From an uncultured Gammaproteobacteria bacterium (GTDB lineage: Bacteria > Patescibacteriota > Patescibacteriia > UBA1558 > S5-K13): a stretch of DNA of 64,000 bases. A program made the translations under genes and the position numbers. The stretch spans positions 17,273 to 81,272 of the forward strand of contig CAZXFD010000001.1 in assembly GCA_964640635.1 (NCBI GenBank), given 5' to 3'. The notes under the pieces were generated by a model. The model was given only the letters and a program-made list of their open reading frames with translations. It searched no databases and was not told the origin of the DNA. Positions 47,036-54,452 of this stretch are shown here, piece by piece. Positions within the stretch are counted from its first letter, which is position 1, and each line of letters starts with the position of its first letter.

Positions 47036-47233
47036 ATGTCAAACAAAGTATTACCAGATGGTCCAAATACTCGTGGTGAGCAAAAGAAGTTTGTAGATCC
47101 ACATCCTACAAATCGTAAGGGTACTCCTCTTGGTGGCCGTGGAAGAGGTAGATGTAAAGGAGGTTCAGAACATAGAAATCGTAGACCGGAGTCTGTTGAT
47201 AGCACAGATACAGATGATGATTCTTGTCAGTAA
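47036..47233 (+). CDS. Small, highly basic Gly/Arg-rich protein with an acidic C-terminus (possibly a KGG-repeat stress-protein type)
   Basis: RBS ggaggtaacca precedes the ATG; 65 aa with GGRGRGRCKGGSEHRNRR, followed by a clean hairpin terminator. Confidence 0.45.
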   Translation: MSNKVLPDGPNTRGEQKKFVDPHPTNRKGTPLGGRGRGRCKGGSEHRNRRPESVDSTDTDDDSCQ

Positions 47234-47251
47234 TCATCACAATCAATAATT

Positions 47252-47286
47252 TAAGGAGTCTCCAATGGGACTCCTTTTTGTTTTGA
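47252..47286 (+). terminator. Terminator after the small basic protein gene
   Basis: aggagtc-tccaatgg-gactcct followed by ttttgtttt. Confidence 0.7.
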
Positions 47287-47592
47287 TTAGCTTATGAAAT
47301 TGTGAGTCATAAATTTATTTAAATAAGTTGATTATTGTTGATAAAAATTAAAATATTATCCACTTGACGTTTGTTTGTATATATGCTAGGATATTTCGTT
47401 AGGTTGTAATTTGACAATAAAACTTATTTATTGCATATTCTGATTTAATGCTTGAAAAAGCTTATTTCCAGGGTTCATATACGCTCATTTTTTGGCTTTT
47501 ATAAGAAGTAATATGGGCTCATTTGAATCCTGGAAATATATAAAAATCAGGAAATATAAATAACAAAAATAATCATAACGAGGAGGATTGTT

Positions 47593-48258
47593 ATGAAGTT
47601 CAAAGATATATGGATCAAAAAAGATCCTGATTCTAAGCCACAAGATCAGAAACCACATATTAGTGTTGGTGGAACGAGTGTGCCAGTGGTGCCAGCAACA
47701 CAACAACATTCTTCAATGAGTGTTTCGTTGCCGAATCAGTCTGAAAATGATGGGGTTGATAATGAATTTAATGATGAATTTGAGAATTCTCTAAAAAACA
47801 TTCAGTTACCCCAGGGTTTCGTAGAATTCATCACTTTGATGGATGAACTTGAAGATACTATCACAGATGTTAAGTTGCGAGTAAAGGCGGCGCTTAAGCA
47901 CGCTATCGGCCATGGTATTTCTAAGGAACAGATTATTTCTTTTTTAACAAAAGAATTAACTACCGTTCAGGAAACAGCCAATAATATTAGAAATGATATC
48001 GAATCGCAAGTTGCTGCTAAAATCAAAGAAAGCGCAACAAAAGTCCAATCCTGCCTACAACAGATTGAAGATATTGATAATAAAATTACAGAACTTCAAA
48101 ATCAGAGGGCTCAGCTTGTTTCTCAGAAAGGATCGGCTGAAGCAGAAAATTCGGTTATAAATCAGAAAAAAGATAAGGCTTTATCTAAGCTTCAATCTGC
48201 GCTGAATTTTCAGCATAACGAAATAAATAATCTATTATCCTACGTTCAACAAGCGTAG
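47593..48258 (+). CDS. Uncharacterised soluble coiled-coil protein (GC-rich island)
   Basis: Strong RBS gaggagg; 221 aa with a Q/P-rich N-terminus followed by about 140 aa of heptad-like helix. Confidence 0.5.
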   Translation: MKFKDIWIKKDPDSKPQDQKPHISVGGTSVPVVPATQQHSSMSVSLPNQSENDGVDNEFNDEFENSLKNIQLPQGFVEFITLMDELEDTITDVKLRVKAALKHAIGHGISKEQIISFLTKELTTVQETANNIRNDIESQVAAKIKESATKVQSCLQQIEDIDNKITELQNQRAQLVSQKGSAEAENSVINQKKDKALSKLQSALNFQHNEINNLLSYVQQA

Positions 48259-48272
48259 GAGGGGAGATAAGG

Positions 48273-49385
48273 ATGGAAACACCAAATTTACCAACACTCA
48301 AATCATCGCTGGATACATTTCTTTCTAAGAAGGAAAAGATTTCGGGCTATCTGTTAACGGGAGGTATAATCATAGCTGCCGTAATCGGATTAAATGCCAT
48401 ACTGCCCTGGTTATCCAATATGCTTGGGAATCTGATAGCAGTTGTTGGAAAGTTAATTACCTTGGGTATAATGGGGATCGCTGCTGCTGGTTTGGTAGTC
48501 ATTGCTCTTTCAGAGCGTACGCATACTTTAGTCAAAATCGCTTTTGCCAGATTGGCTAGAGGTGCCACAATGACTTTTATCAAGTATTCACCGTGGACAA
48601 TTCCTGAAATTTACATAGAGTATATTGATAAGAAGGCGCGAGATATTTATCAAAAAATAACAAACGTACTAGCTATTAATAACTCTATCAAAAAAGCTCA
48701 TGGCAAAAATGTTGAAATTATTGAAAGTAATGATGAAACTTGCAGGTCTTTACAGGAACGATATTTCAAGAATGGTGTTTGGGTAAGTGAAGAACATCAT
48801 AATCTTTTCAGAGAAAAGGCCAGTGATACAGATTTTCGGACTAGATCCAATAAAAATCTTCAAAAACAAATTGACCGGTTGGAGTTTTATTTGACCGTGC
48901 TCAAAAAGTTTGAGCAAGCTTTTAAGTATCGCAGAAATGTTTTGAGAAACTTTTGCGATGCTATCGTGCTTGAATACAATGCAACCAAAGAATCCGCAGA
49001 AGTTACCCGAGAATTAGCTACTCTTTTTGGAACAGATGACATGAAAAAGGTTTTTGACATGTCAGTACAATTTATGCAAGATCGTATGAGCAATTTTGTC
49101 GCAGAGACAGATACCTTTTTCCAGACGAATATGTCTGCTCTCACCGAAATGGATCTTAGCCAAGACGTCGCCGAAGACGCCTATATGAATAGGTTGAAAC
49201 AAATGGGTGATAAGGCTGATCTTTTAATTGAGCAAGCAGATCAGGATCAAAAACTCATTACTTCTGCCGGTTCCGGAAAAGATATGATGAAAATCATCAT
49301 GGAACAAAAGACAGATGGCGTTTATGTTCCCGCTGGTCGTAATACTGGAACATTCGGTAGTAAGAAAAACTACCTTGACATTTAA
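48273..49385 (+). CDS. Uncharacterised membrane protein with two TM helices and a long coiled-coil cytoplasmic domain (GC-rich island)
   Basis: RBS ggagg; Gly-rich helices (GGIIIAAVIGLNAILPWL and LGIMGIAAAGLVVIAL) followed by about 270 aa of helical sequence. Confidence 0.5.
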   Translation: METPNLPTLKSSLDTFLSKKEKISGYLLTGGIIIAAVIGLNAILPWLSNMLGNLIAVVGKLITLGIMGIAAAGLVVIALSERTHTLVKIAFARLARGATMTFIKYSPWTIPEIYIEYIDKKARDIYQKITNVLAINNSIKKAHGKNVEIIESNDETCRSLQERYFKNGVWVSEEHHNLFREKASDTDFRTRSNKNLQKQIDRLEFYLTVLKKFEQAFKYRRNVLRNFCDAIVLEYNATKESAEVTRELATLFGTDDMKKVFDMSVQFMQDRMSNFVAETDTFFQTNMSALTEMDLSQDVAEDAYMNRLKQMGDKADLLIEQADQDQKLITSAGSGKDMMKIIMEQKTDGVYVPAGRNTGTFGSKKNYLDI

Positions 49386-49419
49386 ACTCATAACAAATAA
49401 AGAAAAAATAGGAGAAATC

Positions 49420-50964
49420 ATGTTCAAGAATTTAACTACCTTTGCGAAGATATTCATTATTTTCGTTGTTGTGGCTATAGTGGTTACTATTAGCTATTTC
49501 AGTTTTGACAAACTTGCCCCCGAAGGTAATTCTGTCAATACCAGCAAGCTCTCGGAAGATGTGAGACAAGCCGTCAAAGACGGCACTCCGCTTGTCACAA
49601 TATGCTTTAATACCTGGCTCGGATTCTCCGGAGGAATAGCATACAACGGTGGCACAGAGGCTTCCAAAAGTTCCAGATATTTCACTGAACAGGGTATTTT
49701 AGTTCAGTTTAAACTCATGGATGACTTTGAGGCTTCTCGCAACGCCTTTCGTTCCGGTGACATCGATATGATGTGGACTACCGTGGACTCTTACCCTACA
49801 GAGACCGATGGTCTCAAAGAGTTTGAGCCGCAGTTTTTATTTCAGATTGACTGGTCTCGCGGTGGAGATGCCGTTGTCGTAAGACGTGGAATTAACACTG
49901 TTAATGAGTTGCGTGGTAAGAAAATTGCTTGCGCACTCGGAGCGCCTAGTCATAGTTTGATAATTAACACCCTAGAAGCCGCAGGAATTCCATATAATGC
50001 AGTTGAAATAATTGCAATGCCAACAGCTATTCAAGCCGCCGATGCTTTTAAAGCTGGTCAAGTTGATGCTGCTGTGGTTTGGGCTCCGGATGATGACGTG
50101 TGCGTCGAAGCTGTTCCTGGATCCAAAAAACTTTTCACTACCAAAGAAGCCACGAACATTATTGCGGATGGTTTCTATGCAAAGAAAAGGTGGGCACTGG
50201 ACAACAAAGACACTGTTGTCAAGGTTGCTGCCGGTTTCATGGTCGGTAATGCAGAGATAAATACTGATCCCTCCGCAAAGCAGAGGGCAGTTGAAGTTAT
50301 GTCGGTCGCTCTTGGTCAAAAGGCAGATTTTTGCCTTAGTGGCATAAATAATGTCCGTTTGTCTACGGTCGGGGATAATATGAATTTTCTTGGTCTTGGT
50401 AGCGGATATACAGGAATCACTGCTGAAGCGCTTTACAGACGAATGGCAACTGCGTATCAGCAAGTTGATTATTTAAAAAGCGCGCCTCCAAGTTGGAATC
50501 AAGTTTATGACAAATCTATTATTCCAGCTGTTGCACAAAAAATTCCACCTACTGGAAGTCAAGCACCGGAAAGCGGAGCTGAATTTAGACGATTAAGTAA
50601 TTCTGCTGATTTGGATGTCCGAGCTTCTAAAGATATGACTGTGAATTTCAGTCCCGGTTCATCATATTTGGATGATAATGCTAAACAGCTTATAGACGTA
50701 GGCTTTGCCCCAGTAGCTCAACAATTTGCACAGATGCACATTCGTGTATCTGGGCATACGAGTACAGATGGAAGCCGCGATGTAAATGTTAGGCTTTCCA
50801 GAAGTCGTGCGCAAGCAGTCGTCGACTATCTTGTTCAGCAGTATGGATTTAGTCCGAATAGGTTTATTGTAGCCGGTTATGGACCTGATCATCCAATCGC
50901 AACAAACGATACAGAAGAAGGTCGCGCCAAAAACAGGCGGACTCAATTCGAACTCGTAGAATAA
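49420..50964 (+). CDS. ABC transporter substrate-binding protein (NMT1/SsuA/TauA-like) fused to a C-terminal OmpA/MotB-like peptidoglycan-binding domain
   Basis: The start is taken at ATG 49420 with RBS aggag; an N-terminal TM helix and an SsuA-like core (KIACALGAPSHSLIINTLEAAGIPYNAVEI...DAAVVWAP). The C-terminus reads SGHTSTDGSRDVNVRLSRSRAQAVVDYL...GYGPDHPIATNDTEEGRAKNRRTQFEL (OmpA_C). Confidence 0.7.
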   Translation: MFKNLTTFAKIFIIFVVVAIVVTISYFSFDKLAPEGNSVNTSKLSEDVRQAVKDGTPLVTICFNTWLGFSGGIAYNGGTEASKSSRYFTEQGILVQFKLMDDFEASRNAFRSGDIDMMWTTVDSYPTETDGLKEFEPQFLFQIDWSRGGDAVVVRRGINTVNELRGKKIACALGAPSHSLIINTLEAAGIPYNAVEIIAMPTAIQAADAFKAGQVDAAVVWAPDDDVCVEAVPGSKKLFTTKEATNIIADGFYAKKRWALDNKDTVVKVAAGFMVGNAEINTDPSAKQRAVEVMSVALGQKADFCLSGINNVRLSTVGDNMNFLGLGSGYTGITAEALYRRMATAYQQVDYLKSAPPSWNQVYDKSIIPAVAQKIPPTGSQAPESGAEFRRLSNSADLDVRASKDMTVNFSPGSSYLDDNAKQLIDVGFAPVAQQFAQMHIRVSGHTSTDGSRDVNVRLSRSRAQAVVDYLVQQYGFSPNRFIVAGYGPDHPIATNDTEEGRAKNRRTQFELVE

Positions 50965-51037
50965 GAAAATAATTCCGGAGTGGACAGACGAATGTCTGCC
51001 CACTCCTTTTATTTCTAACTCAAAAAAAGGAGAGTTT

Positions 51038-51835
51038 ATGTTCAGTCAGCTTTTCCAACTCCGCGGATCTTTAAGCAAAAAAGTATCAGGTTTGTGTGAA
51101 TTTATAGGTATCTTGGTAATACTCATTATTTGGACAGTAGTGTCAGAAATGGGTGTTGTTCCCAAGGGAATACTTCCCTCACCCATCAAGATTCTTCAAT
51201 CACTTCCGGAACTCCATTTTGAAGATGCGCTTGTGAGAAATTTATTTTACTCATTTAAGCTCAATTTGTTTGGTGGAATGGAAGCAGTAGCACTTGCTAT
51301 ACCACTTGGTTTTTTAATAGGTCTTGTGCCTGTTTTAAAGGCAATTTTTGGTAGATATATAGAAGCGATTCGATTTTTGCCACTTACAGCGACCATTGGT
51401 TTATTTATTGTAGCTTTTGGACTTGATACAAACATGAAAGTTCAATTTCTTGCCTTTGCGATATTTATTTATTTAGTACCGCAAGTCAAAAGAAGAGTTG
51501 AAGAAGTAGAGGATGTGTATGTTCAAACAGCTCAAACAATAGGTGCTAATGCCTGGCAAAAAATTAGAATAGTATTTGTTCCAGCGGTTTTTGCAAGGGT
51601 TTATAATGATATTGTAAATCTTATAGCTTTGTCATGGACCTATGTAATCGTAGCAGAAATGGTAAACACATCTGGCGGTGGCATAGGATCTCTTACATTT
51701 ATTTGTTTCCGACAAGGAAGAATTGACAAGGTCTATGCAATTTTGATAGTGATTATTCTCTTCGGAATATTACAGGATTTTGTCATGAAGTTGTTGGGAA
51801 AAGTTTTATTCTCTTATTACAAAGAGGGGTGCTAA
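51038..51835 (+). CDS. ABC transporter permease (NitT/TauT family)
   Basis: Six TM helices and a conserved AEMVNTSGGGIGSL loop. Confidence 0.8.
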   Translation: MFSQLFQLRGSLSKKVSGLCEFIGILVILIIWTVVSEMGVVPKGILPSPIKILQSLPELHFEDALVRNLFYSFKLNLFGGMEAVALAIPLGFLIGLVPVLKAIFGRYIEAIRFLPLTATIGLFIVAFGLDTNMKVQFLAFAIFIYLVPQVKRRVEEVEDVYVQTAQTIGANAWQKIRIVFVPAVFARVYNDIVNLIALSWTYVIVAEMVNTSGGGIGSLTFICFRQGRIDKVYAILIVIILFGILQDFVMKLLGKVLFSYYKEGC

Positions 51836-51836
51836 C

Positions 51837-52700
51837 ATGGGAGCAATTCAACAAGTAACAATGTTTCACGACCCAAGTGGTAAAATGCCGGATCACATTT
51901 CTTTTATTGATAATCCTGCTTGGCCCAATATCATTGAGTTCAAGAAGATAAGTCAGTATTATCCTGGCAGAAAAGACCCCGTGATTCTTGATTTGGATTT
52001 GATCATTGAGGATAAACCAGGTGAGGGTCAGTTTGTGGTAATACTTGGACCATCTGGGTGTGGAAAGTCAACCTTGCTTCGCTATGCATGCAAACTACAA
52101 AACCCAACATCTGGCGAAGTTTTGTTAAATGGCCGTATTATCAATCACAATGATCATATCAATATGGTTTTCCAGAATTACTCTTCCTTTTGGTGGTATA
52201 CGGTGCTTGAAAATGTCATGCTCCCGCTTCTTATTCAAGGTATCTCAAGAAAAGAAGCTAAAGAAAGAGCAATGGATATTATCAATAAGGTTGGTCTTTC
52301 CGGTCATGAAAACAAGTGGGCTATATACCCCGCTTTATCAGGAGGACAGCTGCAGCGAGTAGCCATTGCAAGGTCTCTCATCACAAATCCCAAGATTCTT
52401 CTTATGGATGAGCCATATGGAGCGCTTGATATTGTGACAAGGTTTAAAATGCAAGAGCTTATTTCCCATATCTATGACACAACAGATAATATTACCATTA
52501 TCTTTGTGACTCATGATATTGAGGAAGCAGTTTTCCTCGCAGACGACATTTATGTCATGGATGCAAATCCGGGACGTATAGTCCAAAGGTTTCATCCAAA
52601 TCTTCCCTCGGTAAGAACCTGGGAAACCAAGGATGATCTAGTATTCATTCAATCCGTTCACGAAGTTCGCAACTTCATGCGTTCTTTTGAACGCAAATAA
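51837..52700 (+). CDS. ABC transporter ATP-binding protein
   Basis: Walker A GPSGCGKST, signature LSGGQLQRVAIARSL and Walker B LLMDEPYGALD. Confidence 0.85.
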   Translation: MGAIQQVTMFHDPSGKMPDHISFIDNPAWPNIIEFKKISQYYPGRKDPVILDLDLIIEDKPGEGQFVVILGPSGCGKSTLLRYACKLQNPTSGEVLLNGRIINHNDHINMVFQNYSSFWWYTVLENVMLPLLIQGISRKEAKERAMDIINKVGLSGHENKWAIYPALSGGQLQRVAIARSLITNPKILLMDEPYGALDIVTRFKMQELISHIYDTTDNITIIFVTHDIEEAVFLADDIYVMDANPGRIVQRFHPNLPSVRTWETKDDLVFIQSVHEVRNFMRSFERK

Positions 52701-52713
52701 TTAATCAATCAAT

Positions 52714-52763
52714 AGACCCAAATCTCACGTAATACAACGAAGAGATCTGGGTCTTATTTTTTT
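52714..52763 (+). terminator. Terminator after the ABC ATPase gene
   Basis: 13-bp stem agacccaaatctc / gagatctgggtct followed by tattttttt. Confidence 0.7.
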
Positions 52764-52768
52764 ATATA

Positions 52769-52810
52769 AAAAATAAACAGGCTGAGAATTTCTCAACCTG
52801 TTTTTTATTT
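52769..52810. terminator. Bidirectional terminator serving the rhomboid gene
   Basis: caggctgaga-att-tctcaacctg flanked by an A-run and a T-run. Confidence 0.6.
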
Positions 52811-54362: not shown

Positions 54363-54452
54363 GGAAGGTTCGCCTAGTGGCCTATGGCGCCTGCTTGGAA
54401 AGCAGGTTTCCCTTCACCGGGATCGGGGGTTCGAATCCCCCATCTTCCGCCA
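54363..54452 (+). tRNA. tRNA-Ser (anticodon GGA), type II with long variable arm, CCA encoded
   Basis: Acceptor GGAAGGT/ATCTTCC, anticodon stem CCTGC/GCAGG with loop TTGGAAA (anticodon GGA), T-arm GGGGGTTCGAATCCCCC, and a terminal GCCA. Confidence 0.85.

Follow-up and report, generated by a model that had tools for sequence, protein, structure and literature searches.

Two coiled-coil genes, one probably encoding a membrane-anchored PspA/Vipp1-type protein, belong to a transferred five-gene module with an ABC importer

Results

Organization of the locus

We analyzed a 64,000-nucleotide stretch of DNA (contig CAZXFD010000001.1 of assembly GCA_964640635.1, positions 17,273 to 81,272; hereafter the window, in whose own numbering coordinates are given) and focused on two adjacent open reading frames (ORFs) at 47593-49385, ORF1 and ORF2, together with the three transporter genes that follow them. 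The families to which the two products belong are called F1 and F2 here; neither has a Pfam or NCBIfam model, and their members are therefore annotated as hypothetical. The five genes are as follows.

47593-48258, + strand: ORF1, 221 amino acids (aa), an intact member of the F1 family.
48273-49385, + strand: ORF2, 370 aa, an intact member of the F2 family.
49420-50964, + strand: SBP-OmpA, a membrane-anchored NMT1/SsuA/TauA-like solute-binding protein (SBP) with a C-terminal OmpA-type peptidoglycan-binding domain.
51038-51835, + strand: ABC importer permease (BPD_transp_1), TauC/SsuC/SaoP-like by Pfam and NCBIfam.
51837-52700, + strand: ABC transporter ATPase, TauB/SaoA-like by Pfam and NCBIfam.

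ORF1 and ORF2 lie on the same strand with a spacer of 14 nt between them (48259-48272), and Shine-Dalgarno sites are found 8 nt 5' of the ORF1 start (GGAGG) and 5' of the ORF2 start (AGGAGG). A preliminary description of this DNA, made without database searches, had proposed a tightly coupled pair in which each gene has its own ribosome-binding site, and the layout that we read off the window sequence agrees with it. Both are genuine genes; dozens of genomes that are unrelated to one another have homologues of each in the corresponding place.

ORF2 carries a PspA-like domain behind a hydrophobic hairpin

A Kyte-Doolittle scan of ORF2 revealed an unbroken hydrophobic, Gly-rich stretch of 60 residues close to the N-terminus, which we read as two predicted transmembrane (TM) segments forming an N-in/C-in hairpin. 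Basic residues flank this hairpin on both sides, and the positive-inside rule predicts from this a cytoplasmic location for the PspA-like domain behind it. In an AlphaFold2 model built from an 80-sequence alignment (mean predicted local distance difference test score, pLDDT, 79.6), about 265 residues past the TM stretch are helical, and the long hairpin composed of residues 109-164 and 173-249 is modeled at pLDDT 86-98. The scan and the model thus bear out the two Gly-rich TM helices followed by about 270 helical residues that had been predicted for the second protein. The order of the helices is that of ESCRT-III and PspA, in which a long α1/α2-3 hairpin is followed by α4 and α5. The parts of ORF2 are listed below.

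48336-48518, + strand: hydrophobic Gly-rich hairpin, residues ~22-82, whose presumed turn holds Pro45, a residue that is almost invariant.
48522-49316, + strand: PspA/IM30-like domain, residues ~84-348.
Helices of this domain in the AlphaFold2 model: α0-like 81-105, α1 109-164, α2/3 173-249, α4 256-291, α5 298-331 and α6-like 335-348.
49362-49382, + strand: conserved C-terminal Y-x-x-[LF] peptide of the F2 family (Y-x-x-L-F), placed behind a linker that varies; in the family alignment, Tyr364 and Phe368 of ORF2 are nearly invariant.

We then compared F2 with known families at the profile level. When an F2 alignment of 139 sequences was aligned by hhalign with a profile of six PspA/Vipp1/LiaH sequences, among which E. 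coli PspA was confirmed to be 100% identical to its database record, the probability was 95.1% (E 3.3e-8), and 198 collinear columns placed residues 84-300 of ORF2 onto residues 5-202 of PspA, from α0 through α5. The smaller F2 alignment of 80 sequences gave 91.5% (E 8.7e-7), again over 198 columns, and a five-sequence Snf7/CHMP profile gave 65.5% (E 5.8e-5) over 145 columns. Reversed-profile controls reached 2.3% with PspA and 0.4% with Snf7. In the alignment, the EDP motif of PspA at the α0/α1 junction is matched by the conserved F2 segment IDPIGI, whose Pro is Pro107 in the window. Comparisons by hhalign with single PspA or Snf7 sequences, and a phmmer search with E. coli PspA, were uninformative.

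The Pfam matches of the family members point in the same direction. PspA_IM30 was the dominant family, below threshold: it was matched by 24 of the 56 F2 members derived from the loci described below (E<=0.05), and among the 139 F2 representatives by 19 at E<=0.01, with a best E-value of 7.3e-8, while the runner-up family was matched by four members. These matches cover most of the profile, for example positions 21-197 of 220. A small hidden Markov model (HMM) of PspA run against 3,328 six-frame ORFs of the loci retrieved 16 F2 proteins, two F1 proteins (weakly) and nothing else.

At the structural level, Foldseek against the PDB ranked Vipp1 first for ORF2 models built from either a shallow or a deep alignment. 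For the deep model, the 12 best matches had Vipp1 at ranks 1-4 and 8 (probability 1.0, target TM-score 0.56-0.64, E 5e-3 to 5e-2), which was the outcome of the Foldseek comparison that the preliminary description had recommended for this protein. We consider it very probable that the domain of ORF2 belongs to the PspA/Vipp1-type ESCRT-III superfamily. Homology to a well-characterized family, which the preliminary description had named as a result that would refute its reading, was found for ORF2 at the superfamily level; ORF1 gave no such match.

ORF1 is a soluble coiled-coil protein that is not detectably PspA-like

ORF1 begins with a P/Q/S/V-rich region (residues 10-56; six P, five Q and eight S among 47), and from about residue 53 to residue 221 it displays a heptad-like hydrophobic periodicity of 3.5 residues that exceeds that of shuffled sequences; beyond residue 75 it contains only three Gly and no Pro. 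Composition and periodicity are consistent with the Q/P-rich N-terminus and the heptad-like helix described previously, and a Kyte-Doolittle scan detected no hydrophobic segment. Across the F1 family we recognized an N-terminal peptide at the very start of the protein (consensus LKxLKSLF[IV]VEE; MKFKDIWIKKD in the window, 47593-47625), a variable low-complexity linker, often acidic, behind it, a conserved helical region of about 65 residues (consensus NNLxGFDYLEF...PMDE...SAFATASTMG; LPQGFVEFITLMDEL... in the window, with GFxEF...), and a C-terminal coiled coil of about 100 residues. The presence of conserved terminal peptides on flexible linkers in both F1 and F2 suggests, as a conjecture from sequence, that they are candidate docking motifs.

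Profile searches with ORF1 and F1 against Pfam, NCBIfam and the PDB returned generic coiled-coil matches only, among them a weak match of ORF1 to Osmo_CC, the osmosensory coiled coil of ProP (E 2e-4, below the cutoff). The hhalign probability of F1 was 7.4% against the PspA profile (reversed control, 3.7%) and 1% against Snf7, and PspA_IM30 matched four of 59 F1 members amid generic coiled-coil matches. Judged from these scores, ORF1 is not detectably PspA-like or Snf7-like, and the preliminary comparison of the pair to PspA-like systems holds for the second protein (95.1%, α0-α5) but not for the first (7%). The two ORFs were also considered as paralogues, an idea that we rejected since comparing them with each other showed no relation. 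F1 is best described from its sequences as a soluble coiled-coil family outside Pfam and NCBIfam whose one firm property is its obligatory association with the module.

The pair is kept together upstream of the importer

Word-indexed protein searches with ORF1 and with ORF2 returned only the query and one relative each, a search with a fused ORF1+ORF2 alignment returned the query alone, and peptide patterns of ORF2 had no match in a scan of GTDB genomes. The notion of an orphan pair was nevertheless rejected, because the conserved SBP-OmpA neighbour led us to both families. The relative of ORF2 (P0002; 38% identity) lies in the same five-gene arrangement, and the gene upstream of it encodes an ORF1 homologue with 22% identity. 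Scanning GTDB species genomes with SBP-OmpA yielded 331 relatives, of which the best 80 were taken as loci. These 80 are mostly from Bacteroidota (Saprospiraceae, Tenacibaculum, Aquimarina and others) and also include Fibrobacteria, Cloacimonadota, Spirochaetia, Caldithrix, Turneriella and metagenome-assembled genomes (MAGs) labelled as Candidate Phyla Radiation (CPR).

The genes for SBP-OmpA, permease and ATPase are conserved in the 80 loci. Among six-frame ORFs, ORF2 detected a protein of about 340 aa directly 5' of the SBP gene in nearly all loci (E 1e-7 to 1e-31), and after one HMM iteration the F1 family was seen directly upstream of F2. In the 68 loci that were informative, having at least 2.2 kb of upstream DNA, both F1 and F2 were present in 52, only F1 in eight, only F2 in three and neither in five; the median gap between F1 and F2 was 17 nt. 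The pair is thus kept together upstream of the transporter, as the recommended check of neighbourhood conservation was meant to find out. All-against-all clustering identified the five module families as the only families common to the loci. L001/L002, L083 and the contig with P0007, which are the nearest relatives, show the same arrangement, and the neighbours of P0006 are also identical in kind. In an HMMER search of 1.84 billion cluster representatives, at least 367 F2 proteins were retrieved at E<=1e-3.

Aureispira and a number of Bacteroidia MAGs carry a variant of the module in which F1 is longer (about 266 aa) and lies directly 5' of SBP-OmpA, with no F2 (loci L004, L008, L037, L038, L042, L048 and L050).

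In 16 related loci, among them that of the closest relative (L001), a gene for a two-domain AAA+ protein adjoins the module. This protein has about 600-630 aa (for example, L061 11435-13330 and L001 6838-8646), with AAA and AAA_lid_6 in its C-terminal half; the N-terminal half is Pfam-silent and is possibly the degenerate AAA copy of Ravi et al. In Tenacibaculum, a 2OG-Fe dioxygenase gene comes next after the AAA+ gene. Besides F2 and the two weak F1 matches, no PspA was found in the 82 loci.

The five genes were acquired as one unit

The GC content at third codon positions (GC3) of all five module genes is 0.28-0.375, compared with 0.197 +/- 0.021 (maximum 0.238) for the 22 other genes of the window, and the overall GC content is 0.39-0.40 across the module (48000-52700) against about 0.30 elsewhere in the window. 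The genes flanking the module are native-like in composition. As GC3 is raised in all five genes while the flanks are native-like, the module was acquired horizontally as one unit, and together with its conservation we regard the five genes as one inherited and transferred module. The preliminary description had placed the pair at the head of an imported transporter operon; the transporter genes are indeed foreign, but ORF1 and ORF2 share the raised GC3 and are part of the same module.

The window is a chromosomal region of about 31.6% GC that contains the housekeeping genes gyrB, groEL, pheT, glyQS, glmS, pyk, ppsA and the gene for a Na+-pyrophosphatase, with a tRNA gene at 54363-54449. Almost every gene is encoded on the + strand, with a strongly positive GC skew of about +0.2. 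Shine-Dalgarno sites are in use in the host; Bacteroidota, to which most relatives of the module belong, generally do without them.

Transporter genes and other elements of the operon

SBP-OmpA matches OmpA (2e-19) and NMT1 (7.8e-8) in Pfam with support from NCBIfam, and its N-terminal residues 1-33 form a hydrophobic segment. By their domain content, SBP-OmpA, the permease and the ATPase make up a type-I ABC importer with a membrane-anchored SBP. Three further elements were found in the operon.

47463-47538, + strand: long, imperfect hairpin within the leader that precedes ORF1, with 29-nt arms and an 18-nt loop, and no U-run behind it.
50977-51006, + strand: GC-rich hairpin with a 13-bp stem and TTTTATTT behind it, located between the genes for SBP-OmpA and the permease.
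52717-52803, no strand assigned: two hairpins with T-runs at the operon end, the second of which also serves the convergent rhomboid gene.

The hairpin between SBP-OmpA and the permease is probably an intra-operon attenuator or messenger RNA stabilizer, and by its appearance it would raise the expression of SBP-OmpA relative to that of the membrane subunits.

The 5' leader of ORF1 had also been described as long and structured, and this was substantiated by its folding energy: the region 47440-47600 has -48 kcal/mol compared with -24.3 +/- 3.5 in dinucleotide shuffles (z = -6.8), a low value that is due to the inverted repeat with 29-nt arms. No Rfam family matched the leader. The hairpin is almost identical in a strain-level relative (L085), where the 207-nt leader has two differences from the window and the first 210 nt of ORF2 have one, while ORF1 (208-873 of L085) has 34 of 666 nt changed, resulting in 13 amino-acid changes. 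Since the start of ORF2 is equally near-identical, conservation of the leader in this relative is uninformative, and we rejected the idea that the leader is unusually conserved; its contrast with ORF1 stems from the unusual divergence of ORF1, which is a local divergence hotspot between the two strains, through recombination or fast evolution.

Further upstream, a small ORF of 65 aa (47036-47233) has a strong ribosome-binding site and its own terminator (47253-47276). Its product is basic and Gly/Arg-rich with an acidic, Cys-containing tail (…GGRGRGRCKGGSEHRNRR…DTDDDSCQ); its GC3 is host-like, and it has no Pfam match.

Discussion

Our analysis places ORF1 and ORF2 within a horizontally acquired five-gene module, and we propose, at a probability of roughly 0.6, that this module ties the uptake or sensing of a solute to protection or remodeling of the membrane. 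The physiological role that we infer is as follows. The PspA-like domain of ORF2 would polymerize on the cytoplasmic face of the membrane as PspA and Vipp1 do, stabilizing or reshaping the membrane, and the TM hairpin would fix the polymer at sites beside the wall-tethered importer. ORF1 may act as an adaptor or assembly regulator that uses its helical domain and its N-terminal peptide to bind ORF2 or the transporter, and in those relatives that have one, the AAA+ ATPase could take the polymer apart or remodel it, much as Vps4 does. In this way, uptake or sensing of a small solute would be linked to membrane protection or remodeling under envelope or osmotic stress.

A more far-reaching version, which we regard as unlikely, is that the module is a bacterial ESCRT-III-like machine in which an F2 polymer sits at a peptidoglycan-stapled importer with F1 as its adaptor, is controlled through the terminal peptides (LKSLFxVEE and YxxLF) and, in some lineages, by the Vps4-analogous AAA+ protein, and couples uptake or sensing to local membrane repair, invagination or vesicles. 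If this were true, bacteria would own an ATPase-linked ESCRT-III system.

Several points weigh against a role of the module in membrane protection that is built on a PspA-like ORF2. Of the six sequences of our PspA profile, only that of E. coli PspA was matched to a database record; the other five are recognized by Pfam as full-length PspA_IM30 at 142-242 bits. ORF2 of the window has no Pfam match and no NCBIfam model at threshold, and no F2 member reaches the PspA_IM30 gathering score of 33.9 bits, the best being at an estimated ~33 bits; by its sequence scores, ORF2 is placed outside PF04012 at the family level. Every Foldseek E-value for the ORF2 models is above 1e-3, and the F2 family profile run against PDB sequences returned coiled-coil noise and no PspA or Vipp1 chain. 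The 64-kb window contains neither an AAA+ partner similar to that of the 16 loci nor a classical PspA.

In a different explanation, ORF1 and ORF2 would be regulatory or accessory subunits of the importer, acting in osmosensing, gating or as a scaffold, and the PspA-like fold would be a mere coiled-coil platform that performs no polymerization or remodeling. This reading is favoured by the eight loci in which F1 and the transporter occur without F2, so that the transporter link is independent of the PspA-like protein. The strict co-location of the pair with the transporter genes and the weak Osmo_CC match of ORF1 (E 2e-4, below the cutoff) are in line with such a function. Against it, conservation of the entire PspA domain from α0 to α5, including the EDP-like DP motif, suggests that PspA-type self-assembly is retained, and the AAA+ gene in 16 loci suits polymer turnover better than transporter gating. 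We give the accessory-subunit explanation a minor share of the probability and prefer the coupling of uptake or sensing to membrane protection.

It is improbable that ORF2 resembles PspA merely as an artefact of coiled coils or composition and that the pair represents a new, unrelated helical membrane family. Although such an artefact could be suspected in helical proteins, the reversed controls and F1, which is itself a coiled coil, scored only 0.4-7% compared with 95% for ORF2, the 198-column alignment is collinear from end to end, PspA was the single dominant family in two independent sets of members, and Vipp1 came out on top for two independently built models. In addition, an independent published analysis classes the TM-anchored proteins of equivalent operons as Snf7/PspA-like (Ravi et al. 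2024, PMC11237479). We also consider very improbable a pair of the TelA/XpaC type, which the preliminary description had mentioned, that would serve in resistance to toxic anions or stress, or an anti-phage defence module. These have in their favour only the general likeness of helical membrane-associated proteins and a domain-level resemblance of the OmpA domain to ZorB/MotB, whereas TelA and XpaC are absent from the Pfam matches of ORF1, ORF2 and about 250 family members (56 and 139 F2 members and 59 F1 members), PADLOC gave coiled-coil, AAA and OmpA domain noise with nothing for ORF2 and no defence system, and the neighbours form an ordinary type-I ABC importer.

PspA, Vipp1 and ESCRT-III constitute the one membrane-remodeling superfamily that spans all domains of life, and F2 would be a membrane-built PspA-like version of it that is genetically tied to a cell-wall-tethered ABC importer. 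Defining F1 and F2 as families would improve the annotation of hundreds of genomes, and the culturable marine Flavobacteriia among the carriers (Tenacibaculum, Aquimarina) offer a tractable entry to the proposed link between remodeling and transport.

Comparison with known systems

Compared with PspA, Vipp1 (IM30) and LiaH, ORF2 aligns collinearly from α0 to α5, and its model shows the long hairpin and then α4 and α5. As soluble or peripheral proteins, PspA and Vipp1 are bound to the membrane via the amphipathic α0 or through separate anchors (PspB/C, LiaI), whereas ORF2 has a predicted built-in two-TM hairpin. The partners are also different: those of PspA and LiaH are PspF/B/C or LiaI, while the operon partners of ORF2 form an ABC importer.

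The Snf7/CHMP proteins of archaeal and eukaryotic ESCRT-III, which work with Vps4, belong to the same superfamily as ORF2 (hhalign 65.5%), and the C-terminal Y-x-x-L-F of F2 and the peptide of F1, both on linkers, resemble motifs of the MIT-interacting-motif (MIM) type. In the loci studied here, an AAA+ protein is an optional neighbour; it is SpoVK/CbbX-like with AAA_lid_6 and has no recognizable MIT domain, and a link between the peptides and the AAA+ protein is a conjecture. According to a 2025 review of bacterial ESCRT-III (PMC7619361), a Vps4-like ATPase appears to be absent in bacteria, and the review mentions no transmembrane or ABC-linked versions of ESCRT-III. Makarova et al. (2024, PMC11188069) report that certain ESCRT loci of archaea include a ProX-like SBP; this is a mere parallel and not homology.

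Also among the closest known systems is the operon type that Ravi et al. (mSystems 2024, PMC11237479) recognized by comparative genomics. It combines PspA and a divergent Snf7 with a TM anchor with a two-domain AAA+ protein, PBPB+OmpA, a permease and an ABC ATPase, and for it these authors propose a link between membrane remodeling and solute transport. In their example from Candidatus Handelsmanbacteria (OGG56892.1), the order is PspA, PBPB+OmpA, permease, ABC ATPase, TM+Snf7 and AAA. Both systems have SBP-OmpA, permease and ATPase in one operon and, compared by description, a membrane-anchored protein of the ESCRT-III superfamily, which here would be ORF2; the two-domain AAA+ protein with an inactive N-terminal copy is shared by 16 related loci but not by the window. 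On the other hand, the order here is F1-F2-SBP-permease-ATPase, the F1 coiled-coil family takes the place of the classical soluble PspA, and the window has no adjacent AAA+ gene. We found no experimental work on the module in the literature. We read the pair not as something categorically new but as a divergent member of a widespread module, of which comparative genomics has given one earlier account.

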